Source: Candidatus Omnitrophota bacterium (GTDB lineage Bacteria > Omnitrophota > Gorgyraeia > Zapsychrales > Fredricksoniimonadaceae). From it: a stretch of 64,000 bases of DNA. The stretch is taken from NCBI GenBank assembly GCA_903836515.1, contig CAILQW010000003.1, forward strand, positions 33,529 through 97,528. The letters are read 5' to 3'. The notes below the pieces were generated by a model. It ran no database searches and was not told where the DNA came from. It saw nothing but the letters and a program-made list of their open reading frames with translations. Every line of letters begins with the position of its first letter. Position 1 is the first letter of the stretch. The position numbers and the translations under genes were made by a program. Shown one piece after another: positions 5,573-61,199 of the stretch.

Positions 5573-5574
5573 AG

Positions 5575-45954: not shown

Positions 45955-47129
45955 ACACCCCCTCCGCAGGCAATCTCGCCATAAATCTCGCGCAGGCGCG
46001 CCATTTCACGCTCAACATGGAACGCGGTGTGGACCTTCTGCAGCCCCCGGCGTCCCATGTCAACGGCCCCGGGGATATTCCGGCACAGCTTGATGATGGC
46101 CTGGGCAAATGCCTGTGGATCCGCCGTATCGACCAAAACACCGTCGACCCCGTTGTCGATCACCTCGCGAACCCCTTCAATATCAGAAGCGATCGAGGGC
46201 CTGCCCATGGACATGGCCTCCAAAAGCGTGATCGGGAGGCCTTCTCTCAACGAAGGGAAGGCGTAAATATCATAGGTCTTAAAAACATCCCTGATATCCG
46301 CCGTAAAAGGCAGCGATCGGAATTCAACCCTGTCCTCCACCCCCAACTCTTTGGCCAGGGCCCTGAGCCGAAGCGCATCGGGGCCATACCCGCAGATCAC
46401 AAAACGGACCGCCGGGACCTCGCCGATGACCAGGGGCGCGGCCCTGATAAAACGGTCAATTCCTTTTTCAACGCTCAGCCGGGACAATGTCCCGACCACC
46501 GGAGCGCCTGAAGAAAAACCCGGATACGTCAGGCTCGCGGGATCGCCCCCGTCAAGCGGCGTGATGCCCAGGTGCAGGACTTCAACCTTGCGCGCAGGCC
46601 TGAACCCTCCCCGGATCAATTCATCGGCCAACCCGCGGGATACCGCCAACGATCGGATGAAATAATCCTTCAGGAAAAAATTGATCACCCTGTACAACAG
46701 CCTTTTGGGCCAGGATACCGTTGTCGCCAGGAACTGACCCTCGCAATGACAGAGCACCTTGAGACCTTTGATACGGTACGCCGCCAACCCGGCCAGGACA
46801 TGGCTCTGGACATCAAAGGCATGGACAATATCAAATTGCCCCCCTACAAAGATCTTTTCTAATTCCATAATAAAAGGAATAAAGAATTTCTTGGTGATGT
46901 TGGGGATAAAGATCATGTCCCTGGGGTCACACCCCCCGGCGATCATGTAATCACGCAAGGCCTTTTCCTGCAGGGAACAGAAGATCAGCGTCAAACGGAC
47001 ACCGCGCCCCTGCAAATGAGAATAAATATGGCGGACATGCGTTGACGTCCCGCCGAGCTGGTTCATGGTGCATACCAGCGCAACGCGCACAGGCCTGCCG
47101 GCCGGGACAAGATCCGCCGGGTTACTCAC
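45951..47129 (-). CDS. glycosyltransferase family 4 (GT-B)
   Basis: C-terminal GT1/GT4 motif FPSLREGLPITLLEAMSMGRPSIASD. Confidence 0.85.
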   Translation of the reverse strand: MSNPADLVPAGRPVRVALVCTMNQLGGTSTHVRHIYSHLQGRGVRLTLIFCSLQEKALRDYMIAGGCDPRDMIFIPNITKKFFIPFIMELEKIFVGGQFDIVHAFDVQSHVLAGLAAYRIKGLKVLCHCEGQFLATTVSWPKRLLYRVINFFLKDYFIRSLAVSRGLADELIRGGFRPARKVEVLHLGITPLDGGDPASLTYPGFSSGAPVVGTLSRLSVEKGIDRFIRAAPLVIGEVPAVRFVICGYGPDALRLRALAKELGVEDRVEFRSLPFTADIRDVFKTYDIYAFPSLREGLPITLLEAMSMGRPSIASDIEGVREVIDNGVDGVLVDTADPQAFAQAIIKLCRNIPGAVDMGRRGLQKVHTAFHVEREMARLREIYGEIACGGGV

Positions 47130-48055
47130 GGGCCAGCCTTAACGATCGCGCGGTAATATCCCAATGTCGCCTCCACGCTCTGGCGCCATGTATAGTGCGG
47201 CCGCCAGCCGGTATCGCGGCGCAATTTCGCGTTGGATCCCACCGCGCACGGGATGCCGCAGCCGCCGCGCTTGTCTTCCCGAACCTTAAGCCCTCTCCGG
47301 CGGGAAAGATGGATCATGTGTGCCAGGAGCATCTTCATGGGCACCCCCTTGCGGGAACAAATATTATAAATCTCGCCGGCGAGCCCCTTGTGCGCCACAG
47401 CAAGAAGGGCGCCGCACACATCGCGGATGTCGAGAAAATCCCTGACAGCACCCAGATGCCCGGTAGCGATACAGCCGGCCCCGGGCTTGTCCTCAAGCCC
47501 GGCGATCTGCAGGGCAAACCGTCCCCCGGCTGTGGCCGCGGGGATCCCCGGACCCAGGATATTGAATGGCCGCGCGATCACGACATCCGCCCCGGCTTGC
47601 CCGAAACAAAGTGCCGCCTGGGTCTGCGCCCGTTTGCACTGGCCATACGCCGTATCGATAACACCCAGCCTGTCTTCGGTGATGGGCTCCGGCCCGAGAC
47701 CGCAGCCGTATTCAGCCGCCGACCCCATGACAACCACCCGCGGCCGATACCTGCCGATCCCCGCCAGCGCATCAAAAAGTGCGACCGTCGTCCTGACGTT
47801 GGCGGCAAACATGGCCGCAGCATCCAAAGACCTTCCTCCTGCCAGATGAAAAATGATCCCGGGACGCCGTTGGCACAGCGCCCGCGCCGCTTTTGTGTGA
47901 TCGAAAAGATCAATGTTCAACAATTCAAGACCCGGGACATCTTTGCCCTGAACATCCATGCCCCACAGCTCATGCGACGTGTGTGAACGCAAATAAAGGG
48001 CCAAGGCCCGCCCGATGAAACCGGCGGCACCGGTGATCAGGATGTTTTTTTTCAT
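47126..48055 (-). CDS. NAD-dependent epimerase/dehydratase (extended SDR)
   Basis: N-terminus MKKNILITGAAGFIGRALALYL. 309 aa. Confidence 0.8.
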   Translation of the reverse strand: MKKNILITGAAGFIGRALALYLRSHTSHELWGMDVQGKDVPGLELLNIDLFDHTKAARALCQRRPGIIFHLAGGRSLDAAAMFAANVRTTVALFDALAGIGRYRPRVVVMGSAAEYGCGLGPEPITEDRLGVIDTAYGQCKRAQTQAALCFGQAGADVVIARPFNILGPGIPAATAGGRFALQIAGLEDKPGAGCIATGHLGAVRDFLDIRDVCGALLAVAHKGLAGEIYNICSRKGVPMKMLLAHMIHLSRRRGLKVREDKRGGCGIPCAVGSNAKLRRDTGWRPHYTWRQSVEATLGYYRAIVKAGP

Positions 48056-48777
48056 ACCGGACCCGCTGGCAGGAACCTTGCCTTATGCGGCACGAAAATT
48101 TCCTGTGCCCGTTCCAGATCTTCCAGTCGGCCCAGGTCCAGCCACTCGTCGCGCACCTTGTAACAGGAAACTTTTTTGGACAAAGATTTCAGGCGGAGCA
48201 TCAGATCCGGCATGCCGATAGACTCTCCCTTGCCAATGAATGTTTTGGCCTCCGCGCGGAACGCATTCACCCCCATGCTGACAAAAGACTGGTGTTCAGG
48301 CTTCTCATGATACGCCTCAAGCCTGTCATCCGCCCCCACTTCGATCACGCCAAAATCGCTCCTGATCCTGCGCTCCTTCACGGCAAGGCTGGCCATGGCC
48401 CCCTGGCGCACATGCCAGCGCAAGAAAGCAGAAAAATCCATATCCGTGAGGATATCGCCGTTAAGGACAAGAAAATTCGGGGCCGTATCCTTGACAAGTT
48501 TCAGGGCCCCGGCGGTTCCCAGGGGTTTGTCTTCCCGCACATAGCGGATCTCCACCCCCCACTTGGCGCCTTTGCCGAAATACGCCTCGATCAATGCCGC
48601 CATGTATCCCGTCGATATGACGATATGCCGCAACCCGGCGTGCCGCAGCTGGCAGACAAGGATCTCCAGGATGGGTTTGTCGCCAATCGGCAAAAGCGGT
48701 TTGGGCAGGACCGTGGTATAGGGCCTCAGGCGGGATCCCTGCCCGCCGGCCAGAATAATGACGTGGGCCTTAGACAT
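48052..48777 (-). CDS. sugar-1-phosphate nucleotidyltransferase
   Basis: N-terminus MSKAHVIILAGGQGSRLRPYTTVLPKPLLPIGDKPILE. 241 aa. Confidence 0.85.
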   Translation of the reverse strand: MSKAHVIILAGGQGSRLRPYTTVLPKPLLPIGDKPILEILVCQLRHAGLRHIVISTGYMAALIEAYFGKGAKWGVEIRYVREDKPLGTAGALKLVKDTAPNFLVLNGDILTDMDFSAFLRWHVRQGAMASLAVKERRIRSDFGVIEVGADDRLEAYHEKPEHQSFVSMGVNAFRAEAKTFIGKGESIGMPDLMLRLKSLSKKVSCYKVRDEWLDLGRLEDLERAQEIFVPHKARFLPAGPV

Positions 48778-49762
48778 TGTAGATGTCCGTTTTAAAATGG
48801 TTTAAATGTTCTTTAACCCAGGCGCATGTGGCCCGCAGCCCTTGCTCGAGCGGGATCCCGGGTGACCATCCGGTCAGGGCGGTTAACTTGCGCGCGTCGC
48901 AGACAAGGCGCTCCACTTCGCTCTTGGCCGGACGGATCCTGGCCGGATCAACCTCGACACGGACCTTTGAGCGCAGAATATGCTGGATGATCCCCACCAC
49001 CTCCCGGACAGAAACCTCGACGCCGCTGCCGGTATTATAAACCTCTCCCAGCCCTTGATCCACCTGCGCCAGGCGCATGAACGCCTCCACCGTATTGCCG
49101 ACATAATTCAGGTCGCGTGTGGCCTCAAGATTGCCGAGGCGGATGGTCTTCTTCCGTGCCAGGATCTGGGAAATGATCGTCGGGATGACCGCGCGTGCCG
49201 ACTGACGCGGCCCAAAGGTGTTAAACGGGCGCAGGACCGCCACAGGCAGGTCAAAGGAACGATAGAAAGAAACGGCAAAACTGTCCGCGGCCGACTTGGA
49301 CGCGGCGTAAGGCGACTGCGGGTTCAGCGGATGATCTTCGCCGATAGGAACTTTCTGCGCGGTGCCATACACCTCGCTCGTGGAGGTATGAATGACCTTT
49401 CGCACCCCCTGCAGGCGCGCCGCCTGGAGGATATTGACCGTGCCATTGATGTTCGTGGCCACATAACTTTCAGGGGCCTGGTAACTGTAGGGAATGCTGA
49501 TCAAGGCGGCCAGATGGAACACCACATCCACCCCGCGGCAGGCGGTATGGACACAGCCCTGATCGCGCACATCGCCCGCGACCACCTCTATCTTTTTCAA
49601 CACCGCCGCCGGCAACGTATCCAGCCAGCCCCAGGTATTGAACGAATTATAGTACACAAAAGCCCGTACGCCGGCCCCTTCGCGGACACAGCGCTCGACC
49701 AAATGACTGCCGATAAAACCATCCGCTCCCGTCACAAGGACTTTCCTGCCTTTTAACTTCAT
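48770..49762 (-). CDS. NDP-sugar 4,6-dehydratase-like extended SDR
   Basis: Motifs VLVTGADGFIGSHLVE, TSTSEVYG, YAASKSAAD. Start MKLKGRKVLVTG with an AGGAAGG RBS. The ORF track extends to 49780. Confidence 0.8.
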   Translation of the reverse strand: MKLKGRKVLVTGADGFIGSHLVERCVREGAGVRAFVYYNSFNTWGWLDTLPAAVLKKIEVVAGDVRDQGCVHTACRGVDVVFHLAALISIPYSYQAPESYVATNINGTVNILQAARLQGVRKVIHTSTSEVYGTAQKVPIGEDHPLNPQSPYAASKSAADSFAVSFYRSFDLPVAVLRPFNTFGPRQSARAVIPTIISQILARKKTIRLGNLEATRDLNYVGNTVEAFMRLAQVDQGLGEVYNTGSGVEVSVREVVGIIQHILRSKVRVEVDPARIRPAKSEVERLVCDARKLTALTGWSPGIPLEQGLRATCAWVKEHLNHFKTDIYNV

Positions 49763-49776
49763 ATGCACCTTCCTGG

Positions 49777-50664
49777 TCATCGTGCCGTGCTGTTAACATT
49801 CCCCTGCGTCAGAAAATGCACCATCCCGAGCGCCATCGTGCCCAGGCCATCCCAAACCTTCCCATGCCAAAAAATCTCGCGGCCATGCCTGAACTCACAC
49901 CTGGCGGCGGCGCCACGATTCATCGCCACCCCGCGGATGCTCAACGGTAACACCTTGCCGGCGCGGCGGATCAGCTCGAATTCCTCGGCCACAACCGCCA
50001 GGCGATACGTTCGGGAGCGCGTCATGCTGCCCTCTAAAAAACGCAGGGCGCCTAGGTACTCCGGGATCATGGCGATCTCCCCTCGTCCTGCCAACGCCAG
50101 AATCAGGGCAAAATCCTGGGCATACTGATACGGCTGCGCATATCCCCCGGCGTCCTCGGCCGCTTTTCTGCGGTACATGACCGATGAATGCACGATCACA
50201 TTCCTGGCGCCCAGCTGATCGTAGAGCCCATCAGGCGGCGGCGTCCACGCGCCTGCCGGTTCCCCGTGGCGGTCAATATAACGCACCCAGCTTCCCACCA
50301 GCACGACCCGGGAATGTGCATCCATAAACTCGGTTTCCCGCCGGAGGCGGTCAGGATAAGCGATGTCATCGGCATCCAGGACCGCAATATATTCACCGCG
50401 CGCATGCGCCAAAGCATGGCGCAACGCTGGCGTCCGCCCGGTGTTCCGTGCAAAAGTAAACACATGCAGCCGGGGATCCGTATACCCGGACAGCATCGCC
50501 GCGGAAGCATCCGTTGAACCATCATCGACAATGACCAGCTCCCAGTCACCGAAAGTCTGCGCCAGGATGCTCTCGATGCTCTCCCGTAAGAACGGAGCCG
50601 CATTATAAACAGTCATGAGAACCGATACGCGGGGGGCAGCAGCCAGGTGCATGTCAGCAACCAT
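49777..50664 (-). CDS. glycosyltransferase family 2
   Basis: Motifs VSVLMTVYNAAPFLRESIESILAQTF..LVIVDDGSTD, LDADDIAY. Confidence 0.85.
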   Translation of the reverse strand: MVADMHLAAAPRVSVLMTVYNAAPFLRESIESILAQTFGDWELVIVDDGSTDASAAMLSGYTDPRLHVFTFARNTGRTPALRHALAHARGEYIAVLDADDIAYPDRLRRETEFMDAHSRVVLVGSWVRYIDRHGEPAGAWTPPPDGLYDQLGARNVIVHSSVMYRRKAAEDAGGYAQPYQYAQDFALILALAGRGEIAMIPEYLGALRFLEGSMTRSRTYRLAVVAEEFELIRRAGKVLPLSIRGVAMNRGAAARCEFRHGREIFWHGKVWDGLGTMALGMVHFLTQGNVNSTAR

Positions 50665-52474
50665 ATGTTAAACGCCCGCCCCTTTCAACGCCCTTGGCAC
50701 CATGGTCCCAAAAAGCTTTAAAGTCCGGATGGCTGAAATACGCCGCCACATCCCAGTCCACAACGCCCGTGTCGTTAACGGCGTCGATGAATCTTTCGGA
50801 AAAATCATCCTCATACGCCAGGAAGATATGGTCTTTGATAAAATATTCGACTTCCCACGATACTGATTCAGGCACATACACCAGTGTTTTAACCCCCATG
50901 GCCAAGGACTCAAAGACAACGGTAGATGCCGCTGTGACCAACAAAGAACAATCGGCAAGCAACAAAGGAATATTATCATGAACAAACACACAATTTTTAT
51001 ATTTCAGGAACAATGGCGTCAGCACGGCATCCGCCGGCAAATATGGATGCGCCTTGATCTTCACACAAAAACCATCCAGCTTGCCCTCACGCGCCAGCGC
51101 GAGCAAGCGGACCTGCAGCGAAAAAGCGATCAGCGGATCCAAGGGCAAGGCCACGACAACAGATTGAGGGTGCCTTATCGCCGGCCTGATGCCCTTGGAC
51201 CCGATCAAATGGGTATAACGTATCGCGCCGGCGACTTCGACAGGAATATTCGGATAAAAAGGACGAAGGAAATCTGCCCACCGCTGGCCTGCCGTTAATA
51301 TGACATCAGGGCACGGCGCGGAACGCTCAAGGGCCGATGTCCGGTAATCCAGCCAATTATACGGGATTGCGGCATGGGCATAACCGATTTTCCGGATTTT
51401 CTCGGGCAGCGCCAACATCAGCATTTTCTCCCAGGGCTGATTCTCAAACGGATAGATCACGGCCGCCGTATCCTTTAACCGCTCAAACAGGCCGCGATAA
51501 CCATGGAATAACAACAAATTTCCCATGTAAACATTTTCGCAGTTTTCCCGCCAGGCCTCGTTGATCACCAGCTCCCGCAAAACCACGCCATCCTCACGGC
51601 CATCCTCAAGGATCGTGATGGTGAATCGACGGCCAAGAACCCGCCAAAGATCCCTGAACGATACGGAACGCAACGGATAAATGATCGACCTGAAACGCCG
51701 CCGCAAGGCTCCCATGTGCCGCAACGGGATCATGAGCGGGGCCATTCTCCGCACAACCAGATCTTGCTTTTTGAACCACGCTTCCAGGCCGCCAAAGTAA
51801 GGATCGTGGAATCCCGCGAGATCATTGAATGTCCGTTGATCGATCCAGCTATGGATCACCACATCACACGCACCTGAGGGCGCCGGCGTTAACAGCCGGC
51901 CCAACAACCAGAAAAAACCATACCTCACAAGCTGAATATATCCTTGCAGGCATCGCCTCACCCGCGACATACAAAAGGTACGGGCTGGGGCAACATCCAT
52001 ATTTTTGCCGCCGACCTTCCCCATGACCTTTAAAAAATCATGGTCATCTGTAACAACAAGGATGTCGTCCTTTTCACGGGAAGCCAATGCCTCCAGCAGC
52101 TTGAAATAAACATAATGGTCAAAGATCAACGTCTGACTGTTGGATTTCGAGGCCATCCGCGAAGAATACCACAGGACTTTATCCTGTTGGAGCTCCGCCA
52201 TGGCCCCGATATAATCGACAAATCTGTCCCGCACAGCCGCGGTGACCTCTTCGATCATCCTGCCGATAAAAATACGTTTCTCATCCGGCAAATAACCTGA
52301 GGCCGATGTTAACCCCTTGTAACTGCCGATATACAGCCAGGCCGATCGACAACGGTCTTTTAATCCTGGTAACGCCTGTGTTGAAACGACGCGGATCATG
52401 AACCATGCCCCCTGGAATACGGTGTATCGTTCAAGAACTGGCCAACAAAGAAAAATCCCGCACAACATCCACAT
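50654..52474 (-). CDS. large hypothetical protein, possibly GT-B-like surface carbohydrate biosynthesis protein
   Basis: No recognised catalytic motif. The C-terminal half has an alternating beta-alpha pattern. Alternative start MIRVVSTQ at 52399 with an AGGGGG RBS. Confidence 0.55.
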   Translation of the reverse strand: MWMLCGIFLCWPVLERYTVFQGAWFMIRVVSTQALPGLKDRCRSAWLYIGSYKGLTSASGYLPDEKRIFIGRMIEEVTAAVRDRFVDYIGAMAELQQDKVLWYSSRMASKSNSQTLIFDHYVYFKLLEALASREKDDILVVTDDHDFLKVMGKVGGKNMDVAPARTFCMSRVRRCLQGYIQLVRYGFFWLLGRLLTPAPSGACDVVIHSWIDQRTFNDLAGFHDPYFGGLEAWFKKQDLVVRRMAPLMIPLRHMGALRRRFRSIIYPLRSVSFRDLWRVLGRRFTITILEDGREDGVVLRELVINEAWRENCENVYMGNLLLFHGYRGLFERLKDTAAVIYPFENQPWEKMLMLALPEKIRKIGYAHAAIPYNWLDYRTSALERSAPCPDVILTAGQRWADFLRPFYPNIPVEVAGAIRYTHLIGSKGIRPAIRHPQSVVVALPLDPLIAFSLQVRLLALAREGKLDGFCVKIKAHPYLPADAVLTPLFLKYKNCVFVHDNIPLLLADCSLLVTAASTVVFESLAMGVKTLVYVPESVSWEVEYFIKDHIFLAYEDDFSERFIDAVNDTGVVDWDVAAYFSHPDFKAFWDHGAKGVERGGRLTYGC

Positions 52475-53087
52475 GGGTGCCGCTGGTGATGCCGCCGGGA
52501 TCCGTGACCTCGGAATACCGGCTCATAAAAACAAAATCAAAACCGAAGAGGCCGGCGACATGCTGGTCGTAACGGCTGTCCCCGAAAAAAACCGCAGGTG
52601 TCAGGATGCGGCCACCCGCCACCTCGGCGGAAAGGATTTCTTCCTTGGAGCGCGGGCTGCCATAAATGGCGTGAAAATACTGTGCCAGCCCCCGGCGCTT
52701 GAAAACATCCCGCAACTCCGTCTCCAGGCCCCCTGAAACAACGATCTTCACGCTTTCAGGCGGCAATCGGCGCAGAAAATCTTCGCAGGCATGTGTTAAC
52801 GGGCACGCCAGAAGGGCCTCGAACACAAGCCGCCCATACTGCGCCACGGATCCCGCGACCTGGTCCTGCGGGTCCTTTTGCCCCAGAATCTCGTTATAAA
52901 GATATTCGATCTTGCGGAAACGGGAAATCCCGCCGTTATGTTGATGGTATGCCACCAGCCGTTCTGCCGCGGCTTTGCCGTAAGCAATGGCCAGGTCATA
53001 AAAAGCTTTTGTCTTGATCGCGTTGGAATCCAGGATCACCCCGTCGCAATCAAACAAAAAAGTCCTGTACGCGGAAAGCTCAAGCAT
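52431..53087 (-). CDS. HAD-superfamily phosphatase
   Basis: Start MLELSAYRTFLFDCDGVILDS (DxDGV motif I). Later motifs SGG and GDSRYD. The ORF-track N-terminal extension to 53288 would overlap the upstream gene. Confidence 0.7.
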   Translation of the reverse strand: MLELSAYRTFLFDCDGVILDSNAIKTKAFYDLAIAYGKAAAERLVAYHQHNGGISRFRKIEYLYNEILGQKDPQDQVAGSVAQYGRLVFEALLACPLTHACEDFLRRLPPESVKIVVSGGLETELRDVFKRRGLAQYFHAIYGSPRSKEEILSAEVAGGRILTPAVFFGDSRYDQHVAGLFGFDFVFMSRYSEVTDPGGITSGTHVDVVRDFSLLASS

Positions 53088-53820
53088 CCCTTGCCTTTCG
53101 CAGCACCGCGTCAACCGCAGCGACATCTCCCGGGACATCCACGGCCAGAGACCCGCCGGCCACTTCACACATACGGACAACAATCCCCAGGTCCAGGAAT
53201 CTGAGGATCTCGATGTCCTCGATCTTCTCCAGGGCGCTCTTGCGGCCGAAGCCTTTAAATCTTTGCAACTGCTCACGGTCAAAGGCATAAATACAGACCT
53301 GCTTATAGCGCGTTATGCCATCGTTAACACCCTTTTTGCTCCCCGGAACGGGCAAGCGTGACATGTAAACGAGTTCGCCGCGTTCATTGAAAACAACCTT
53401 GGGAAGGTTCACACTGGCCACATCTTCCCCGGGCAGTACCCGGGCCATGGCGTTAACCACCACCCCGGGAAAATTTTTCTTTTCAGCGGCCACTTTAAGG
53501 ATGCTCGCCGGATCCAGGAGCGGCTCATCGCCCTGGATATCCAGATAAATATCCGCCGGGATCTGCTCTGCCGCGCACGCCACCCGGTCCGTACCGGTCA
53601 AAAGGTCTCCGGGGGTCATCACCACCTCAAACCCGTGGCTCTGGACCGCCTCACGGATGCGTTCATCATCTGTCGCCACATAAACATTTTCTTTCCCCAG
53701 CGCGCGCTCCACCGCCTGAGCCACCCATATGATCATCGGGTGGCCGGCAAGATTTACCAGCGGCTTCCCGGGGAACCTTGAGGAGGCATAACGCGCAGGA
53801 ATAACACCGACCGTCCTCAT
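53080..53820 (-). CDS. acylneuraminate/3-deoxy-octulosonate-type cytidylyltransferase (KdsB/NeuA family)
   Basis: N-terminus MRTVGVIPARYASSRFPGKPL, a KdsB/CMP-sugar synthetase hallmark. The ATG overlaps the upstream stop (TGATG) and has an AAGGA RBS. Confidence 0.85.
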   Translation of the reverse strand: MRTVGVIPARYASSRFPGKPLVNLAGHPMIIWVAQAVERALGKENVYVATDDERIREAVQSHGFEVVMTPGDLLTGTDRVACAAEQIPADIYLDIQGDEPLLDPASILKVAAEKKNFPGVVVNAMARVLPGEDVASVNLPKVVFNERGELVYMSRLPVPGSKKGVNDGITRYKQVCIYAFDREQLQRFKGFGRKSALEKIEDIEILRFLDLGIVVRMCEVAGGSLAVDVPGDVAAVDAVLRKARDA

Positions 53821-55412
53821 CAAGAACCATCCTTGAAGAGCGAAGGTGTCAAAAATTCAACCTGGATCTTCGGTGCCAGCTGCCGGAGCGCCTTGGCAAT
53901 GGCGCCGTTCTGCTCCGCCAGCGCCTTCTTATCGATCACACGCCCCATTTCCGGATAACTGTAATTTTCATGCGCGGACATGCTGTAACCATCCAGGCCC
54001 GCCACCGCCACACGAGCCACCCGCAGCTGCACCAGAATATTCAGCAAAAGGACCGCCACATTGTCGCATCGGTCTGCTGTTTTATTGACCAACGCATCGT
54101 AATCGACGACAAAACAGCCCTGGTGCCGGGGCTGAAGCTCAATGTTGCTCGTAACAATCAGGGCTGCCTTATCCAGCTGCTCATGAAACTCGTCGTACCG
54201 TTTTTGATTCGAAAAAAAGAACAAACCGGCCGGGATCAACGCAGGGACATGATTGAGGGCAACCGGAAGTTCTCCCTTCCTGCGGATACGCTCCAGGATA
54301 TTACCGGCCTCGGCCTTGATGCTTGGCCCTGAAGCGATCGCCACGATCTCCCTGGAAACAAGCATCTCATCCGGACTTTTTCCTGTGGCCCGTTTGACCG
54401 ATCGGGAGGCGATATACAGCTCTTCGATGCATTCCTGGCTGAAAATACGGCGCCGCGCGTCAGGGATGGAGGCGAGGACTTTCTCAATATCCACCACCGA
54501 AAGCGTCTTCTTGTCCAGCAGGTAACTGGCATAATTGGGATGACAGTTCAGCGTCGCCGAGAGAAAGTAAGCGATCGAATAACCCCACGCATTTTCCCGG
54601 TAAATGGCCTCAATGGGATTATCGATACATTCCAGGAGCGGCACAATGTCATAATTTTTGGCATGCTTGACATTCAGATAATGCATCAAAAGCTCGGTAT
54701 TCAAATTCCCCGCGCCACGCCCCATGCCAAAGATCGACGCATCAATGAGAAGTTCACGCGCAGGCCCGACCGCCTCGATCATGTCAATGGCATTGGCATA
54801 GGCTAACTGCAAATTATTATGGGCATGATACCCCAGCGCCAGGTTCGGGCGCAAATATTGATCCAGATTTTTCCAGAGTTGAACGAGTTCCTTGGTGAAC
54901 AAAAGCCCGAAACTGTCAACAATGTAGACAGCCACGACATCGATCGGATTGAACGTATCGGCCAACGCCTTGAGGTCAGCATCCGTGTAGGCGGTTGTCA
55001 CCATCGGCTGAACGTAGACATGATATCCTTTGGCCGCCATCTTGCGCGCCTCTTCAGCCGCCTGAGCCATCTGCTCTTTATGAAACGCGAGCCGGATACC
55101 GGAAATATGCTGTCCCTGGTAAGGCGGCAGATCACCCGCCGAGAATTTGCCAAGGTCAACCATCAGGCAAAATCGGGCCTTGACGCCTGCAGGGGCAAGA
55201 TCGCCAAGGATCTTCTCCGGCGCTTGAAGATCACAAAAAATCGAACTGTCCGCGCCGCCCTGGCTTTTGCGGTCCAGATACCCCAGCTCAATGATATCAA
55301 CACCACTGGTCATGAGCGCCTTGACAATATTCTGCCAGCTCTTGCGGTCAAATTGCCAGTCATTGACATAACCGCCATCCCGCAGTGTGCAATCAAGAAT
55401 TTTCACCATCAT
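53820..55412 (-). CDS. HMGL-like (DRE-TIM metallolyase) aldolase/synthase domain fused to a C-terminal domain of unknown function
   Basis: Motifs ILDCTLRDGGY, YHAHNNLQLAYANAI and GMGRGAGN match the IPMS/4-hydroxy-2-oxovalerate aldolase family. About 200 C-terminal residues have no recognisable motif. Start MMVKIL with an AAAGG RBS. Confidence 0.75.
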   Translation of the reverse strand: MMVKILDCTLRDGGYVNDWQFDRKSWQNIVKALMTSGVDIIELGYLDRKSQGGADSSIFCDLQAPEKILGDLAPAGVKARFCLMVDLGKFSAGDLPPYQGQHISGIRLAFHKEQMAQAAEEARKMAAKGYHVYVQPMVTTAYTDADLKALADTFNPIDVVAVYIVDSFGLLFTKELVQLWKNLDQYLRPNLALGYHAHNNLQLAYANAIDMIEAVGPARELLIDASIFGMGRGAGNLNTELLMHYLNVKHAKNYDIVPLLECIDNPIEAIYRENAWGYSIAYFLSATLNCHPNYASYLLDKKTLSVVDIEKVLASIPDARRRIFSQECIEELYIASRSVKRATGKSPDEMLVSREIVAIASGPSIKAEAGNILERIRRKGELPVALNHVPALIPAGLFFFSNQKRYDEFHEQLDKAALIVTSNIELQPRHQGCFVVDYDALVNKTADRCDNVAVLLLNILVQLRVARVAVAGLDGYSMSAHENYSYPEMGRVIDKKALAEQNGAIAKALRQLAPKIQVEFLTPSLFKDGS

Positions 55413-56521
55413 CAACCTTTCTTCATCTGATGCCGATTCCGGCTCATCCGCCCCATGGCACGCTCGAATTCTTTCATGAACTGCATCATGACCGGCTTGG
55501 GCCCCAGGGTAAGCCGGACACAATTTTCCACAGGAAATTCGAATGACCCCCTGATATAGATCTTCTTTTTCTTGAGCGCCTCGAGCAATTCATGCGTTTC
55601 TTGCGTGTCACGTAAAAAGATCAACATCCCGTTGGAGAAATTACCGCCGGACCAGCGGATACCCAGCTGCGAGAGCCTGTGCTGGACATAATCTTTCCCC
55701 TGCTTGAGGCCTTTAACATATTGCCGCATCAGCCCGGCGTGCTTCAACATGTATTCCCCCACAGCCATGGAAAGCGCATTACATTCGACAAGCGAGCGTG
55801 TTTTGGAAAGATACTCAATATTATCCTTCGAGCTGATCATATACCCCAAACGCACACCCGCCAGGCCAAACGCCTTGGAAAATGTCTGAAAAATAATGAT
55901 ATTGTCATACGCATGAAGCAACGGCAGGGCGCTCTCTGCCCCGAAAAAAGCATACGCTTCATCCACCACAAGAAAAGCATCGCACGCCCGGCATTTATCG
56001 GCGATCCGGCGGATATCGGCAAGGCCGAAGACACTCTCAATGGGCAGATTGGGATTGGGCAGACAAACCAGGACCGTACGCTCGTTGATGGCATCACAGA
56101 TAGACTGCACGTCCAGCGCAAGGTCCTTGTTGAAGGCCACTTCCCGGATCTTGGCCTGATAAATCTGCGCATAGATCCTGTACATGGGATAGGTGGGCTG
56201 AAGCATGACCACCTCATCCCCGGGTGAAACAAGCGTCTCAAAAATAATGCGGATCCCTTCGGTGATCGCATTGGTCACATAAAGCTGTTCCACAGGAACT
56301 TTCACCCATCGGGACAAAGCCGCATAAAAACGGTCCGTATCCGGATAGGCGTTCAAAAGATATGCGGGCAAAAGTTTGTGCAGGTCCTGCATGACCTTTT
56401 TGGGAAATTCGGTAACGCGTTCATTCCTGTCCAGGCGCAGGCCTTCCTTCAAATTCCGCCCGACGGATGTCCTTTTTCTCTCGATAGCGGCCAAATGGCC
56501 CTTGAATCTTCGTTTGATCAT
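55412..56521 (-). CDS. class I/II PLP-dependent enzyme, HisC/CobD-like (aminotransferase or decarboxylase)
   Basis: Motifs LRLDRNE (cf. HisC LSSNENP) and FQTFSKAFGLAGVRLGY (PLP-lysine region). 369 aa. Confidence 0.8.
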   Translation of the reverse strand: MIKRRFKGHLAAIERKRTSVGRNLKEGLRLDRNERVTEFPKKVMQDLHKLLPAYLLNAYPDTDRFYAALSRWVKVPVEQLYVTNAITEGIRIIFETLVSPGDEVVMLQPTYPMYRIYAQIYQAKIREVAFNKDLALDVQSICDAINERTVLVCLPNPNLPIESVFGLADIRRIADKCRACDAFLVVDEAYAFFGAESALPLLHAYDNIIIFQTFSKAFGLAGVRLGYMISSKDNIEYLSKTRSLVECNALSMAVGEYMLKHAGLMRQYVKGLKQGKDYVQHRLSQLGIRWSGGNFSNGMLIFLRDTQETHELLEALKKKKIYIRGSFEFPVENCVRLTLGPKPVMMQFMKEFERAMGRMSRNRHQMKKG

Positions 56522-57513
56522 GTCTTCCCTTGCCCCTCTCTTTTAATCTTGGGTTCTTTGGCCAGCGCAGGATCCAGGGGTTCTGCCGGCATATCGCAAT
56601 TGTTCAGGCAATTATGGCATACCGTCCCCAAAAGATTGCCCGCCGCATGCCTCCGGCGCAAGGCAACATACGCCTCATGATGCCAGGCATCCTTGATATT
56701 CGTTTTATGCAGATCCGCGACGACCAGGTAATTCTGATAATCGACAACACACGCCGAAAGATAGCCCTCGGGAGTCACCGTGCATCGGGAAAAAACATCC
56801 GGACACTTGCCGGAGTGATGTCCCTGCCGCAAGCTTCCCAGGAGGTTGCCCTTGTCGATCTTTTCTGTCTTGTTATTCTCGAGCATGTTCCCGCCCTGAT
56901 TACTGCACCCCCGGCCATCGATCTCGTCCACAAAATCATTGAGCAATCCCGCCAATAACGGGAATTCACCCTCTGTCAACGTCGTCGGAACCATGCTCAC
57001 ATAGATACGGAAAGACAGGCCGCTTTTGATCCTGTACCCATGCAGCCATTGAATATTCTCGATCACCTGGTCAAAACGATCCACCCCGTGCACCTTCTTG
57101 TATGACGCGCGCGTGCCGGCATTCACGGAAAACTTGATGCTGTCCAGGCCGGCTTCCAGGACCGGCATGACCCGCTGCGGTGTCGCGGCGATGCCATTGG
57201 AATTCAGAAAAACATATTCATACCCTATGGCTTTGGCTTCCCGGACGAATGCCGCGAGGTCCTGACGCAAAAAAGGCTCTCCGGTCGCAAAGAACGCCAC
57301 CTCCCGTGCCCCGCAGGCAAAGAAATCCCTCAACAGCTTAAACCCGAACGCTTGGTCAAGGTATGCGGGCTTTCCCACCTTGGAATTGCTGCAAAAGAAA
57401 CATTTGGAATTGCAGGTGTTATTCAGGTCAAAGAATACTTCCCGCGGGAAAGGCGGATAAAGGTTATTGAAATCGACATCCATCCTTTTTGATTTCTTGG
57501 CCGACAAACTCAT
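56518..57513 (-). CDS. radical SAM protein with C-terminal SPASM-like cysteine cluster
   Basis: Radical SAM motif CNSKCFFCS (CxxxCxxC). C-terminal cysteines CPDVFSRC...C...CHNCLNNC. Confidence 0.8.
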   Translation of the reverse strand: MSLSAKKSKRMDVDFNNLYPPFPREVFFDLNNTCNSKCFFCSNSKVGKPAYLDQAFGFKLLRDFFACGAREVAFFATGEPFLRQDLAAFVREAKAIGYEYVFLNSNGIAATPQRVMPVLEAGLDSIKFSVNAGTRASYKKVHGVDRFDQVIENIQWLHGYRIKSGLSFRIYVSMVPTTLTEGEFPLLAGLLNDFVDEIDGRGCSNQGGNMLENNKTEKIDKGNLLGSLRQGHHSGKCPDVFSRCTVTPEGYLSACVVDYQNYLVVADLHKTNIKDAWHHEAYVALRRRHAAGNLLGTVCHNCLNNCDMPAEPLDPALAKEPKIKREGQGKT

Positions 57514-57523
57514 CTGAAGTCCT

Positions 57524-58495
57524 TTATTGATGTTTTACGGATGACGGCCGCTTGATCGTCAGGATGATCTGGTTGCCGGAAGATCTTTTTTCAATGGCCT
57601 CCCGATAATGGCGGTCAAACGCCCGGATCAGCCCGGCGAGTTCGCGCCCCAGCCCTGTCGCAGACGCCGCCAATCGCTGGGCCGCATCCAGGGCATAACG
57701 ATCTCCGCCCACAATCCCGGTGGTCCTGGGTTTTCCGTCAAGATGCCATAACAGGTGATTCAAGGGGCCATACCCCTGGCGCGTTGTCACCTGAAAAGCG
57801 ACCCCGTGAGAGCGTTTGAATATTTTCCCCAATTGAGCCGCCGCCTGTACGGAATAATAGGCGCTGGTCATTTTTTCATGGAAAAAATCCTTGTAGGCCT
57901 TGATGTTCCAGACATCGTTTAGCACATCGTGATAATTCGGGGTGATGATATAGATCTGCCCGCCGGGTTCCAGCAGCTCAATTAACCGCTGGCCATACGT
58001 TACCGGATCCTTGATATACTGGATCACATAAAAAAGGAATATCTTCCGGAAACGCAAGCCGTCCTGCTCTACCGCATCCAATGTTTGATGGCACGGGATC
58101 CCCAGCTGCCGCCGTACAAATCCCGCCCGCACGGGATTGATCTCAAGCCCTACAGGCTTTATCCCGGCATCCTGCAATGCCTTCAAGAAATAACCCCACG
58201 AACAGCCGGCCTCCAGCACACGCTTGCCCCGGTCGGCGGGACCGGTATATTCTTTCCGGTACTCCAAGGCCTGCCTGAATCCGTTATCAAAATCAGTCTT
58301 GATATCCGGCACATCTAAAGCGGCGGTACGCAGCCGCGCCTGCTCGAATTTATCCTCCACGATCAATCGTGTATGATCCGTGTTGAGAAAGGCAAAGTCG
58401 CACGACGGGCAGTGAAAAAGCCGCTCTGTTTCCCCCCCGCGGGCCTTGACAGGCCGCGCCCTGGGAACAAGCTTTCCGCAAATACTACATGTCAT
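57524..58495 (-). CDS. class I SAM-dependent methyltransferase with N-terminal zinc ribbon (sugar C-methyltransferase-like architecture)
   Basis: Start MTCSICGKL...CPSCDF (Cys4 ribbon) with a GGAGG RBS. SAM motif VLEAGCSWGYF. The ORF track extends to 58642. Confidence 0.75.
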   Translation of the reverse strand: MTCSICGKLVPRARPVKARGGETERLFHCPSCDFAFLNTDHTRLIVEDKFEQARLRTAALDVPDIKTDFDNGFRQALEYRKEYTGPADRGKRVLEAGCSWGYFLKALQDAGIKPVGLEINPVRAGFVRRQLGIPCHQTLDAVEQDGLRFRKIFLFYVIQYIKDPVTYGQRLIELLEPGGQIYIITPNYHDVLNDVWNIKAYKDFFHEKMTSAYYSVQAAAQLGKIFKRSHGVAFQVTTRQGYGPLNHLLWHLDGKPRTTGIVGGDRYALDAAQRLAASATGLGRELAGLIRAFDRHYREAIEKRSSGNQIILTIKRPSSVKHQ

Positions 58496-59570
58496 CCCTG
58501 CTCCTCCCATCAAGGGGCCTGGGCCGGTCCAATTCAGCCGCGAGCCTTTCCGCCAACGCATTCTCGGTTCTTTCCCCGATAAAATGAGCCGCATCAAAAA
58601 AGTCATCCATGAAATAACACCCGGCAATATCCTTCGCTTCAAGGAAACTTATGCCGCCATAAGATTCCTTCCTGAAAAATTCCCGCCATTGCGCGTTAAG
58701 CTGCTGCAACAAAGGATCCGTATCGATCATCCGCTGATAATCAGGGGTCTTCACCGTTTCAAACAAAACCGTCCGTATCTTGCGTGCACGCAGCTCCTGG
58801 AACATCCTGATATAAACACGCTGGGCTTGAGCTGAAAGTCTTTTGTTTTTTAAGAACGTCGCTTCACTGTCTTCCCTGTCGAAATACGCCTGCGCATCAC
58901 GGTTCTTGACAAAATCATACGCACCCGCCTTGATCTGCCGGCGTATCTCCTGATACTCCTTGTTCCCGTATAGATCGTTGAGGCGCGGGATTTCCTGATG
59001 AAGCGCCTGTTTGATGCCATAAAGAGCCATGGCCCGGAAACGGCTTTTAGCGGCGTCGCACATAAACCACGTTATGGCCTTGGCCTGACGCAGCCTGTTC
59101 ATGATACCATGCGCCGGAGATAATTCCTGCTTCAATCCCCATAAATCACCGATCCTGGGATCTGTGAATGGAACAGACTGGACATACCTCGCGTAGGAAA
59201 AGACTTTGGTCATGGCCATGGATTCGAAACTGACACCCAGCACAACACGCTTGATGTCCCCATAAAGCAGGGCATGGTTGAGCTGCAGGGCCGCATCCAC
59301 AGGATCCACCCCGGACAAGCTCCAGTTAAAAGGGGCCCAGTGCCTTTTCAGGAAAGGGGTCAATGCCATCCTTTGAGCACGGGAATCCCCGCAAATGACC
59401 GTATCAACCCGCGGCTTTCTCATAAAATCGAAATGTTTTAACTGCGGCTCCGCCAGCCAGTCCATTCCCAGAACCTGCTCATTGGAAATGAAAGGGCCTG
59501 CGAGGTTGATGCCCGCGACCAGCACGATGGGCGTCACAACAAATAATATAAGGCCGATTTTCTTCATCAT
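58485..59570 (-). CDS. SGNH/DltD-like extracytoplasmic acyl-transfer protein (AlgX/DltD analog)
   Basis: Start MMKKIGLILFVV (signal anchor) with an AAGGT RBS. Motif VICGDSRAQ (GDS) and C-terminal DFFDAAHF (DxxH). Directly downstream of an MBOAT gene. Confidence 0.55.
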   Translation of the reverse strand: MMKKIGLILFVVTPIVLVAGINLAGPFISNEQVLGMDWLAEPQLKHFDFMRKPRVDTVICGDSRAQRMALTPFLKRHWAPFNWSLSGVDPVDAALQLNHALLYGDIKRVVLGVSFESMAMTKVFSYARYVQSVPFTDPRIGDLWGLKQELSPAHGIMNRLRQAKAITWFMCDAAKSRFRAMALYGIKQALHQEIPRLNDLYGNKEYQEIRRQIKAGAYDFVKNRDAQAYFDREDSEATFLKNKRLSAQAQRVYIRMFQELRARKIRTVLFETVKTPDYQRMIDTDPLLQQLNAQWREFFRKESYGGISFLEAKDIAGCYFMDDFFDAAHFIGERTENALAERLAAELDRPRPLDGRSRDDM

Positions 59571-59712
59571 AAAGAAATACCTTAGAACTGCTGGTATGCA
59601 ATAAATTGAGATTTGGTCTCCATCCCCAAGAGGCACAACCAATAAATGACCAGCTGCAGCACAAGGACAACGAGCAGTACCTTTTTATTATCCGCAAGGA
59701 CCTTGACGATCT

Positions 59713-60924
59713 TCATACGGAGCGCCCTCCGATCACCGCCATCACCTGATACAGGTCATGGAACGAATACTGGAAGACCAGGAACGTGGCCATCACATAA
59801 CATTGGCACACCACGATCGCAGCGGCCCTGACCGCACCATTATTCTTATAGGCTTTCAGGGCTGGCTTGGGCAGCAGCGCCTTCAATAATTCACCATAAA
59901 GAAGGGTGATGACCACTCCCAACCCCTGAAGCACCCCGAAAAGGACAAAACGGATCTCATTGCCATGCCATATCCCCATTAAAAAGAAGGAAATAAAAGT
60001 AACGCCAACCAGGGACAATAACGGATTAAAACGCCTTGATGCGGCCACCATCATCGGGTAATACAGATAATCACGGAAGAATTCCGAGAGAGAAATATGC
60101 CACCGGTTCCAGAAATCGACCATGTTCCTGGCGATAAAAGGAACCCTGAAATTTTCAGGGACCCTGAACCCGACAGCCCTTCCCACGCCGATCACCGTAT
60201 CGCAATACCCGGAAAAGTTCAGATACAAATAGAGCGGAAAAGATATGAAAAAAAGCGCGAACGCGGCCGCCGACGGTGCGGCGGTAAATGTCGTTATCAC
60301 CGCATACTGCTGAAAGAAAGGAGCGATGACCGCCATTTTGATCAGCCCCCAGACGATCCGGTTGAACGCTTTCAATGAATCCTGGAGCGGCACGTCTTCT
60401 GTTTCGAAACGCCGCATGTGTTCGATAAAGTCATCGTAGCGCTGGATGGGCCCGGCCAGGAACGTCCAGAACGCCAGATTATAGTTAAGGTAATCCAGGG
60501 GGCGGACCGATTTGATCATGCCATCGCGCACATGCACGCTCAGATGGATCTGGCGGAACAAGATGAACGAATACCCCAGCACCGACCACCAAATCGCAAA
60601 GGCATGCCCCCCCAGGAAACTCCCCGTGATCCAGTGATATTCTTTAACCGTCACGAACCACACCAGGTCAAGGATCAGCCAAAGGATGAAAACGAGCCTC
60701 TTCGCCTCCACGCGCAGCATGAGCTGCAACGACAGGTAATGGCTCAGCATCCACGCAAGCAAGATGAGACCTGAAAACAGCCGCGGCTGAGGGATGACCA
60801 GCAGGATAAATATGATATTAAGGGCCAGAAAAACATGGCGTTTCACCCGGTTCAGCGACGCCATCCCCAGCAGCAGCAAGGCCGACGAGAGAAAAATATA
60901 CATTCCCGGTGATTGGAACGTCAT
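59713..60924 (-). CDS. MBOAT-family membrane O-acyltransferase (DltB/AlgI-like)
   Basis: Polytopic. Conserved histidine region FWNRWHISLSEFFRDYLYYP. Start MTFQSPG at 60924 overlaps the ACP stop (ATGA) and has a GGAGA RBS. Confidence 0.85.
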   Translation of the reverse strand: MTFQSPGMYIFLSSALLLLGMASLNRVKRHVFLALNIIFILLVIPQPRLFSGLILLAWMLSHYLSLQLMLRVEAKRLVFILWLILDLVWFVTVKEYHWITGSFLGGHAFAIWWSVLGYSFILFRQIHLSVHVRDGMIKSVRPLDYLNYNLAFWTFLAGPIQRYDDFIEHMRRFETEDVPLQDSLKAFNRIVWGLIKMAVIAPFFQQYAVITTFTAAPSAAAFALFFISFPLYLYLNFSGYCDTVIGVGRAVGFRVPENFRVPFIARNMVDFWNRWHISLSEFFRDYLYYPMMVAASRRFNPLLSLVGVTFISFFLMGIWHGNEIRFVLFGVLQGLGVVITLLYGELLKALLPKPALKAYKNNGAVRAAAIVVCQCYVMATFLVFQYSFHDLYQVMAVIGGRSV

Positions 60925-61187
60925 GCGCCGTGATCTCCGCATTTTTGCTGGATCATCCTGGCGAAACTTCCGACATTCTGACCCGGCTTTTTCGTTTCAG
61001 CGATCTCCGCGGTCGTAAAACGGATCTTGAATGATTTTTCCACGGCCAGCATCAGGGTGATATGCCCCAGCGAATCCCATTCATCAATCGCCTCTGCCGT
61101 GGTTGCCGGGCCGATCACCAGGCTGTCATCATCAAAAACCTCGCCAAAAACAACGTTCAACTGCCTGATCACATCCTGCATATCCAT
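60921..61187 (-). CDS. acyl/peptidyl carrier protein (DltC-like)
   Basis: 88 aa. Phosphopantetheine-attachment motif DEWDSLGHITLM. Confidence 0.8.
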   Translation of the reverse strand: MDMQDVIRQLNVVFGEVFDDDSLVIGPATTAEAIDEWDSLGHITLMLAVEKSFKIRFTTAEIAETKKPGQNVGSFARMIQQKCGDHGA

Positions 61188-61199
61188 CGCGTTAACCTT

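Follow-up and report, generated by a model that had tools for sequence, protein, structure and literature searches.

Sialic acids, 3-deoxy-d-manno-octulosonic acid (Kdo) and other ulosonic acids are key determinants of cell surfaces, where they serve in immune evasion, as phage receptors and in host mimicry. The pathways that lead to their activated forms share a common logic. In the Kdo pathway (KdsA, KdsC and KdsB or KpsU), a condensing enzyme is followed by a phosphatase and by a CTP_transf_3 enzyme that forms the cytidine monophosphate (CMP)-linked sugar. Likewise, the phosphorylated routes to sialic acid and 2-keto-3-deoxynonulosonic acid (Kdn) combine a synthase, a phosphatase of the haloacid dehalogenase (HAD) superfamily and a CMP-sugar synthetase. 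Examples are the animal route, with N-acetylmannosamine kinase, N-acetylneuraminate (Neu5Ac)-9-phosphate synthase, HAD phosphatase and CMP-Neu5Ac synthetase, and the Kdn-9-phosphate synthase and phosphatase of B. thetaiotaomicron. Genomic prediction of ulosonic acids currently rests almost wholly on homologues of NeuB and KdsA. Here, we describe a 64-kb chromosomal stretch (hereafter, the window) from an uncultivated Candidatus Omnitrophota bacterium, in which six consecutive minus-strand genes (52431–58495) follow the same logic with a different kind of condensing enzyme. Together with a downstream gene for a 581-aa protein, they probably form a branch that makes a CMP-activated, tailored 3-deoxy-2-ulosonic acid for a surface polysaccharide, a prediction from sequence that we make with moderate confidence overall and with considerably lower confidence for the details of the tailoring.

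The six genes encode a methyltransferase dependent on S-adenosylmethionine (SAM), a radical SAM/SPASM enzyme, a HisC-like pyridoxal phosphate (PLP) enzyme, an aldolase fusion protein, a KdsB/KpsU-type cytidylyltransferase and a HAD phosphatase (Table 1). An initial annotation of this DNA had assigned six consecutive genes to these families, and the assignments are borne out by long open reading frames (ORFs), by strong Pfam matches and by the gene calls on a public contig (L001) that is identical to the window and adds 10 kb upstream. The limits then drawn around the module were too narrow: the six genes do belong together, and the downstream gene (50654–52399) is part of the conserved module as well. 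The wider claim, that the genes operate in the manner of Kdo or sialic acid activation and feed glycosyltransferases, is now backed by gene fusions, synteny, sialyltransferase-type neighbours and the scarcity of NeuB, from which it appears that the acid activated by the cytidylyltransferase comes from the aldolase. Domain identities, conserved catalytic residues, fusions and synteny are direct observations, and the substrates, the product and the order of the steps given below are putative.

The aldolase belongs to a widespread family. At least 7790 matches were found among the candidates scored, in at least 582 species-level genomes from many phyla, so the earlier impression of a module peculiar to this locus does not hold. 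Members occur in Clostridia, Bacteroidales, Bacilli, Campylobacterales, Treponema, Fusobacterium, Melainabacteria/Cyanobacteria and one Methanomassiliicoccaceae archaeon, and the occurrence in Firmicutes, Melainabacteria and an archaeon points away from a role in the Kdo of lipopolysaccharide. Cultivable carriers of the family include Bacteroides vulgatus ATCC 8482 (BVU_2661), Proteocatella sphenisci DSM 23131, Pectinatus haikarae DSM 16980, Anaeromicropila herbilytica and Pseudogracilibacillus auburnensis DSM 28556. Of the 120 nearest homologues, half (60) combine the aldolase, its C-terminal domain and a KdsB-like CTP_transf_3 domain in one chain of ~780 aa. Genes were called and clustered in 84 related loci (NeuB was counted over 89). 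In 62 of the 84, the aldolase has a KdsB- or NeuA-type CTP_transf_3 gene in its vicinity, usually directly beside it; the window's own locus is a 63rd, its cytidylyltransferase having been missed by the ORF caller used for this count. Sialyltransferase-type genes, belonging to the alpha-2,8-polysialyltransferase family (PF07388), glycosyltransferase (GT) family GT52 or the MptE-like group, are present in 46 of the 84, and NeuB-like synthases in just 4 of the 89. Three of the related loci (L004, L006 and L089) display a conserved order of HMGL-type aldolase, HpcH/HpaI aldolase, ferredoxin-like (LdpA-like) protein, HAD enzyme, KdsB-like enzyme and ~565-aa LIC13510-like protein, and thus hold two different class II aldolases per module.

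The gene after the aldolase usually encodes a phosphatase, which can be of four unrelated kinds (HAD-IA, HAD-IIIA, HAD-IIA or inositol monophosphatase-like); the HAD-IIIA phosphatase of related loci resembles KdsC and Kdn-9-phosphate phosphatase and scores above the TIGR01670 cut-off. Occasional neighbours of the aldolase include a PfkB protein resembling 2-keto-3-deoxygluconate (KDG) kinase and an enzyme resembling 3-dehydroquinate (DHQ) synthase. Enzymes of all these kinds work on 2-keto-3-deoxy sugar acid phosphates, and the interchangeability of the phosphatases, taken with these two neighbours, suggests a compound of this class as the product. The neighbours are thematically consistent with 2-keto-3-deoxy sugar acids but name no particular sugar. 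A second context was found in 17 of the 84 loci, where the aldolase is accompanied by a YerE-like thiamine pyrophosphate (TPP) enzyme and genes for cytidine diphosphate (CDP)-hexoses. These TPP-type loci (including L051, L053, L058, L059, L062, L063, L066 and L084-L086) carry a nucleotidyltransferase, an E1-type dehydrase, a short-chain dehydrogenase/reductase (SDR) and a HAD enzyme, and some of them also a DHQ-synthase-like protein. The cytidylyltransferase context and the TPP-enzyme context are nearly mutually exclusive, which fits a 2-oxo-acid product usable by either enzyme class. TPP-type loci may use the same product differently, for example in branched or carbocyclic sugars.

Residues ~1–290 of the aldolase form a DRE-TIM metallolyase barrel, with a TIM-barrel fold and a PF00682 (HMGL-like) match above the Pfam gathering score. 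The predicted condensing enzyme is of the type initially proposed and not of the KdsA/NeuB type. Its top solved relative is the N-terminal domain of BVU_2661, an uncharacterised protein of Bacteroides vulgatus (PDB 3dxi; 5e-31), followed by 4-hydroxy-2-oxovalerate aldolases of the DmpG type (1e-13), with citramalate, homocitrate and isopropylmalate synthases ranked much lower. Across 35 homologues, R11, D12, H196 and H198 are invariant; they align with R17, D18, H200 and H202 of DmpG, which represent the Arg-Asp pair at the end of strand 1 and the H-x-H ligands of the divalent metal in DmpG and BphI. An equally invariant Tyr15 aligns with the catalytic His21 of DmpG. The aldolase falls short of the DmpG/BphI equivalog models (86.4 bits against a cut-off of 286 for TIGR03217; 95.5 bits against 229 for NF006049) and still further short of the isopropylmalate, citramalate and homocitrate synthase models (top score 53 bits, cut-off 413). 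A Pfam scan of the protein returned neither a LeuA_dimer nor a DmpG_comm domain, and no aldehyde dehydrogenase gene was found beside the aldolase in scans of the window neighbourhood and L001. From these comparisons, the enzyme is nearer in sequence to the DmpG-type aldolases than to the Claisen synthases, and the identification as an isopropylmalate or citramalate synthase, raised at the outset as one of two findings that would refute the proposed pathway, can be set aside.

The aldolase had also been recognized at the outset as a fusion protein, which is correct. The partner, then left unnamed, consists of the C-terminal ~195 residues and is a distinct domain resembling MptE, Maf and sialyltransferases. 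A fold search with the full-length aldolase gave TIM barrels only; thus, a separate model was made of the C-terminal domain. In profile comparison with Pfam-verified MptE-like (DUF115) proteins of related loci, the domain was matched with a probability of 96.9% (E 1.5e-10); a direct Pfam match to PF01973 was not obtained at E ≤ 1. The alignment with Cst-II was not significant and placed no His opposite the catalytic His188. The domain carries the motifs ASGPS, NH, FFSNQKRY, AGxDGY and NYSY and has ~14 invariant residues, which are mostly polar and include N53, N68, R71, D140 and Y150. Searched exhaustively against 1.84 billion representative proteins, it matched 820 clusters at E ≤ 1e-10, and among the matches listed it stands behind the aldolase or at the end of apparent gene fragments. 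This near-exclusive attachment to the aldolase and the invariant polar residues argue for a dedicated ligand-binding or catalytic partner. The fold group takes in both CMP-sugar-binding enzymes and pyrophosphokinases.

The cytidylyltransferase carries the motif IPARYASSRFPGKPL, which had been quoted when it was first called KdsB/NeuA-type, and its CTP_transf_3 match (6e-39) upholds that call. Its top solved relative is KpsU of E. coli K5 (4.5e-43). With 263.1 bits, it passes the ‘CMP-Kdo synthetase’ subfamily model NF009905 (cut-off 255), yet it stays under the equivalog cut-offs for kdsB (127.8 versus 155.2 bits for TIGR00466; 146 versus 281 for NF003948). The catalytic and CTP-binding residues (R10, R15, K19, D98 and D225 of KpsU) are kept in the window enzyme and in 34–35 of 35 aldolase-associated homologues. 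Residues H172, Q202 and Q96, which we take to line the sugar pocket, are shared by the two canonical sequences compared (KpsU and V. cholerae KdsB) and are variable in the aldolase-associated group; in the window enzyme, H172 is replaced by Q and Q202 by I. The HAD enzyme has weak NCBIfam matches to phosphatases of the beta-phosphoglucomutase family and to 6-phosphogluconate phosphatases, and its subfamily (cluster c25) also follows fused aldolase–KdsB genes in Campylobacterales. The portion of the genome examined comprised the window and the 10 kb upstream. No kdsA, kdsC, kdsD, neuB or pepM gene was detected in the window, nor kdsA, kdsC, neuB or pepM in the 10 kb upstream, and a canonical kdsA/kdsC pair, which the initial annotation had named as a finding that would favour a plain KdsB, is thus lacking from the locus. 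The sole DAHP_synth_1 protein in the window (9816–10964) has a ferredoxin-like domain of 3-deoxy-d-arabino-heptulosonate 7-phosphate (DAHP) synthases and is encoded within an aromatic amino acid operon, which identifies it as DAHP synthase and not KdsA.

The remaining three of the six genes form a cassette. The radical SAM enzyme carries CNSKCFFC, with the CxxxCxxC core, and a full SPASM domain, and its nearest solved relatives are BtrN (2e-12) and BlsE (5.5e-5). Each of these, in its own pathway, forms a ketone that is then aminated by a PLP aminotransferase. The window enzyme is predicted from this similarity to form a keto intermediate through alcohol oxidation or diol dehydration. It has ~400 homologues at E ≤ 1e-20, and in every sampled locus its gene adjoins a HisC-like gene. 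The PLP enzyme of the window, which is predicted to aminate the keto intermediate, carries the SKAFGLAGVRLGY lysine motif and has HisC (1.5e-29) and CobD (5e-13) as its top PDB matches; it scores 221.7 bits with TIGR01141 hisC, under the cut-off of 276.55, and 132 bits with CobD. The aromatic amino acid operon contains another, separate Aminotran_1_2 gene (10975–12057). The methyltransferase has weak, UbiG-type top PDB matches and no NCBIfam match. The C-methyltransferase-like architecture once attributed to it could not be substantiated, as there was no match to Methyltransf_13/14 (sugar C-methyltransferases of the TylC3/NovU type) at E ≤ 0.01 and only generic class I models were hit.

The cassette recurs in L088 and L090-L094. 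In L088, a 69%-identical relative, it stands beside the same aldolase/KdsB/HAD set, and in L094 it lies directly behind a triple-fused aldolase–MptE–KdsB gene. In L091-L093 (from Campylobacterales, a metagenome-assembled genome of Brocadiaceae and another metagenomic contig), it is found with HpcH/HpaI-type aldolase and CTP_transf_3 modules. Counting the window, six of the seven cassette loci have an aldolase and CTP_transf_3 module, with an aldolase of either the HMGL-like or the HpcH/HpaI type; L090 is the only sampled locus in which no aldolase and cytidylyltransferase are nearby. The cassette is therefore portable between aldolase types. We infer that it represents an oxygen-independent unit to ‘oxidise or dehydrate, transaminate, methylate’ that acts on an ulosonic acid or a precursor. 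In three cassette loci, the PLP gene is accompanied, immediately or at a distance of two genes, by an N-acetyltransferase gene; a DUF386 gene (PF04074), of a family linked to sialic acid metabolism, accompanies the cassette once, in the HpcH/HpaI-type loci. Sets of an HpcH/HpaI aldolase, CTP_transf_3, a HAD enzyme, a 2-hydroxyacid dehydrogenase and a PF04199 ‘cyclase’ were observed among the cassette loci L090-L093. One of these, an Omnitrophota locus, combines the cassette with ATP sulfurylase, adenosine 5′-phosphosulfate kinase and a sulfotransferase-like gene.

The 581-aa protein scores 61.5 bits with TIGR04326 (cut-off 250) and has weak matches to DUF6716 and Glyphos_transf; it showed no significant relationship to the polysialyltransferase and GT52 profiles. 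Its homologues come after the module in L004, L006, L088, L089 and L092. A transferase role for this LIC13510-like protein is probable on the basis of the weak matches and synteny.

Together, these observations lead to the following proposal. The DRE-TIM domain, acting in the synthetic direction as a metal-dependent pyruvate aldolase of the DmpG type, would replace the phosphoenolpyruvate (PEP)-dependent KdsA or NeuB and would form a 2-keto-3-deoxy sugar acid phosphate from pyruvate (or oxaloacetate) and a phosphorylated aldose. The HAD enzyme would then take off the phosphate. The KdsB-like enzyme, as its homology and conserved catalytic residues suggest, would link the anomeric hydroxyl group to CMP, and the resulting CMP-sugar may be handled or transferred by the LIC13510-like protein, by the Maf/sialyltransferase-like C-terminal domain of the aldolase or by both. 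Least certain is the tailoring, in which the BtrN-like enzyme would make a keto group, the HisC-like enzyme would aminate it and the zinc-ribbon methyltransferase would add a methyl group; these reactions may fall anywhere relative to the condensation and the dephosphorylation, and both their position and their order are conjectural.

Several points weigh against this proposal. The cytidylyltransferase, having passed NF009905, could make plain CMP-Kdo. Approximately 20% of the aldolase loci have no CTP_transf_3 gene; thus, a link to CMP activation does not hold throughout the family. In L011, L013, L034 and L041, the slot downstream of the aldolase that is usually held by the phosphatase is taken by the KDG-kinase-like PfkB protein, whose match to the kinase portion of the ‘KHG/KDPG aldolase/sugar kinase fusion’ model reaches 552 bits; a simple need for a phosphatase does not account for this arrangement. 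The C-terminal domain is ambiguous, as transferase, CMP-sugar sensor and (pyro)phosphokinase are all conceivable roles. HisC-like enzymes are atypical as sugar aminotransferases, and that of the window could act instead on a small amino-alcohol phosphate. Furthermore, a free 5- or 6-amino-2-keto acid cyclises spontaneously, which limits where amination can occur. We know of no publication on this aldolase family, and none was found in the literature library searched. The sole match, an inventory of phosphonate pathways, deals with PEP-mutase neighbourhoods (PMC8942020).

Other explanations of the locus can be weighed on the same evidence. The cytidylyltransferase might be a KpsU paralogue, an ordinary CMP-Kdo synthetase of the capsule type, that receives its substrate from housekeeping KdsA and KdsC encoded elsewhere in the genome, with the other genes making, for example, a non-sugar substituent. 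Omnitrophota are bacteria of the Gram-negative type and probably make Kdo, the sequence examined spans just 64 kb plus 10 kb, and the scores with NF009905 (263 vs. 255) and KpsU (4.5e-43) and the full set of catalytic residues are those expected of such an enzyme. Nevertheless, half of the nearest relatives carry the aldolase and the KdsB-like enzyme on a single chain, the same gene trio recurs in Firmicutes, Melainabacteria and an archaeon, the score falls short of the kdsB equivalog model (127.8 vs. 155.2), and H172 and Q202 of KpsU are replaced. Nor was an isomerase of the KpsF/KdsD type seen among the recurrent neighbour families examined in the 84 loci, a survey that did not scan every family. 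On balance, we regard this explanation as unlikely. Slightly less probable in our estimation is a reaction of the aldolase on a keto-sugar linked to a cytidine nucleotide, with the C-terminal domain holding the CMP or CDP, to yield a branched or chain-extended sugar. The BtrN-like enzyme could supply the ketone, to which the barrel would add pyruvate; the C-terminal domain has a CMP-sugar-binding fold and invariant polar residues and is found essentially only on the aldolase, and the ~20% of loci that combine CDP-hexose genes with a YerE-like TPP enzyme and have no CTP_transf_3 gene would be accounted for. However, the recurrent and interchangeable phosphatases are left unexplained, the fold of the C-terminal domain also includes pyrophosphokinases, and we are aware of no precedent for a DRE-TIM aldolase that acts on a nucleotide sugar.

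The locus might alternatively make a small cytidylyl-activated head group, such as a phospho-amine or phospho-amino acid (serinol-, threonine- or phosphonate-like), which a TagF-like protein would move as a phosphodiester, comparable with the chemistry of Clostridioides difficile CD0241-0244 or Campylobacter Cj1435-1437 or with a phosphonate pathway. The presence of a HisC/CobD-like PLP enzyme, a HAD enzyme and a methyltransferase would suit such a product, as would the weak Glyphos_transf match of the LIC13510-family protein (7e-4) and an upstream B12-radical SAM enzyme with PhpK as its top NCBIfam family. We consider this improbable, since the cytidylyltransferase is a KdsB-type CTP_transf_3 enzyme and not of the LicC, TagD or PntC type, the B12-radical SAM enzyme belongs to a distinct FkbH/MBOAT module and, at 353 bits, misses the PhpK cut-off of 600, and the neighbours in related loci are sialyltransferase-type. 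As for a phosphonate origin through an aldolase branch of the FrbC/RhiG type, which we reject, the initial annotation was right to report no PEP mutase: an EDKxxxxxKxNS-type motif, which we take as the signature of PEP mutase, was found in no frame of the window or L001, and Pfam scans gave no PEP_mutase or Ppd domains. Finally, the idea that the aldolase-like protein is an isopropylmalate, citramalate or homocitrate synthase, placed by chance in a glycan locus and serving metabolism of the amino acid type, is effectively refuted. Its scores lie far under the synthase cut-offs, it has an MptE-like C-terminus in place of a LeuA_dimer domain, and its synteny with cytidylyltransferases and glycosyltransferases is kept across phyla.

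The production of a CMP-activated, tailored ulosonic acid, which we continue to favour, would have consequences beyond this locus. More tentatively, the aldolase–MptE family might constitute a third class of ulosonic acid synthase, evolutionarily unrelated to the other two and dependent on pyruvate, and together with cassettes such as the one described here it might underlie a hidden repertoire of CMP-activated sugars resembling sialic acids; we put the chance of this at a little less than even. If true, a synthase hard-wired to a nucleotide-binding domain, and often to a CMP-sugar synthetase, would exist in hundreds of species, and its products, possibly shorter-chain, amino- and N-methyl-substituted sugars, would be displayed at the cell surface in anaerobes, gut bacteria and uncultivated lineages. 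If the module makes CMP-ulosonic acids, surveys based on NeuB and KdsA overlook a large class of producers, including common gut Bacteroidales and Clostridia. The family would also offer a new type of enzyme for the chemo-enzymatic synthesis of sialic acid analogues from pyruvate, an oxygen-independent route for aminating ulosonic acid sugars and a testable function for the structural-genomics orphan PDB 3dxi (BVU_2661). That the module is common in gut anaerobes gives it greater general importance and makes the locus in the window less unique.

Table 1. Genes and domains of the module, with positions in the 64-kb window.
Feature	Position	Strand	Basis or prediction
SAM-dependent methyltransferase, 323 aa, N-terminal CxxC...CxxC zinc ribbon	57524–58495	-	Pfam Methyltransf_23 2e-13
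Radical SAM/SPASM enzyme, 331 aa, nearest BtrN	56518–57513	-	Radical_SAM 1.8e-18 + SPASM 9e-8
HisC-like class I/II PLP aminotransferase, 369 aa	55412–56521	-	Aminotran_1_2 7e-44
Aldolase fusion protein, 530 aa	53820–55412	-	HMGL-like 3.7e-21 over residues ~1–290
Aldolase N-terminal part, aa 1–335: DRE-TIM (HMGL-like) barrel and helical linker	54408–55412	-	Predicted ulosonate(-phosphate) synthase
Aldolase C-terminal domain, aa 336–530: MptE/Maf/sialyltransferase-like nucleotide-binding fold	53820–54407	-	
KdsB/KpsU-type cytidylyltransferase, 246 aa, predicted CMP-ulosonate synthetase	53080–53820/53823	-	CTP_transf_3 6e-39
HAD-IA (beta-phosphoglucomutase-type) phosphatase, 218 aa, predicted ulosonate-phosphate phosphatase	52431–53087	-	Pfam Hydrolase/HAD_2, FDCDG motif
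LIC13510-like ‘surface carbohydrate biosynthesis protein’, 581 aa, probable GT-B-type transferase	50654–52399	-	Weak matches and synteny

The module lies within a surface-polysaccharide locus that extends from ~38.5 kb to past 64 kb of the window, has nearly all of its genes on the minus strand and is operon-like. Neighbouring reading frames of the six-gene set overlap by 1–11 nt or stand 10 nt apart, and a scan of this region for intrinsic terminators and promoters gave no signal over background; thus, the six genes appear to be part of one long operon-like polysaccharide cluster. The locus encodes an initiating sugar transferase, WecG, GT2, GT4 and GT9 enzymes, an FkbM methyltransferase and sugar-nucleotide enzymes, and the additional 10 kb of L001 contribute a flippase, HisH/HisF, an LIC12162-type protein and more transferases. 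The first 38 kb of the window hold housekeeping genes, namely, the aromatic amino acid operon, cmk, lepA, plsY, smc, dnaG, rpoD, an opp-type transporter, pgk and tpi. The encoded LepA shares 97% identity with that of an Omnitrophota metagenome-assembled genome. A 1098-aa ORF (502–3798, minus strand) and a 297-aa ORF (5544–6437, plus strand) gave no Pfam match at E ≤ 0.001.

Other parts of the polysaccharide locus are of separate interest. Two Wzy_C genes (O-antigen ligase/polymerase-type) lie apart from each other at 38502–39812 and 44572–45954. The region 47126–49780 encodes a LegB-type NAD-dependent 4,6-dehydratase (TIGR04180, 476.9 bits, cut-off 475), a sugar-1-phosphate nucleotidyltransferase and an SDR epimerase/reductase. 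With HisH/HisF and the LIC12162 protein in the upstream part of L001, which is WbuX-like, this set looks like a branch for a 6-deoxy-N-acetylhexosamine or an acetamidino sugar. Adjacent to the module, a Dlt-like acyl-export set with FkbH in place of DltA occupies 58485–64000 and continues into L001 (7898–14590), in the order MaoC dehydratase, B12-binding radical SAM enzyme, FkbH (61200–63074), carrier protein (88 aa with a DSL motif; 60921–61187), MBOAT (59713–60924), a single-pass membrane ORF of 44 aa with the C-terminal end FIAYQQF (59582–59716) and a membrane-anchored protein of 360 aa with a CGDS motif and without any family match (58485–59567). This set suggests O-acylation of a surface polymer, perhaps with a glyceryl-derived group. 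Its B12-binding radical SAM enzyme (546 aa) is the PhpK-like protein mentioned above; the B12-radical SAM enzymes that adjoin the cassette in L088 and L092 are not its orthologues, and it was therefore rejected as a member of the module.

In comparison with the Kdo pathway, the window encodes a cytidylyltransferase that is a true homologue of KpsU, and some related loci have a phosphatase of the KdsC type. In contrast, the window locus has neither KdsA (DAHP_synth_1) nor KdsC; its aldolase is a DRE-TIM enzyme that presumably uses pyruvate and not PEP, its phosphatase is of the HAD-IA type, positions conserved between KpsU and KdsB are changed, and genes for amination and methylation are added. 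The likeness to the sialic acid and Kdn routes is found in related loci, which have NeuA-type cytidylyltransferases, enzymes resembling Kdn-9-phosphate phosphatase and transferases of the GT38, GT52 and Maf types. If the C-terminal domain of the aldolase were a kinase, the parallel to the kinase-containing animal route would be closer still. However, the aldolase is not NeuB- or NANS-like, and 85 of the 89 loci have no NeuB-like gene. With the class II pyruvate aldolases DmpG and BphI and with RhiG, the aldolase shares the fold, the Arg-Asp pair and the H-x-H metal site; unlike DmpG and BphI, it has Tyr for His21, a biosynthetic context and an MptE-like fusion, and it has neither DmpG_comm nor a partner dehydrogenase. 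Compared with Maf, GT42 enzymes (Cst-I/II) and archaeal MptE, its C-terminal domain is just ~195 aa long, is fused behind an aldolase and has no direct PF01973 match.

For the tailoring, the closest parallels are BtrN/BtrS of the butirosin pathway, BlsE/BlsH of the blasticidin S pathway and KdnB/KdnA of Shewanella, in each of which a radical SAM enzyme or a dehydrogenase forms a ketone or aldehyde and a PLP enzyme aminates it. The product of the last pair, 8-amino-Kdo (Kdo8N), provides precedent for the amination of an ulosonic acid. The pair in the window differs in that the aminotransferase is HisC-like and not DegT- or BtrS-like and in that the SPASM domain of the radical SAM enzyme is complete. 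Thus, the logic of the pathway is already known from Kdo, Kdn and sialic acid, and what is new is the predicted type of synthase, its fusion to a Maf/MptE-like domain and tailoring based on a radical SAM enzyme.

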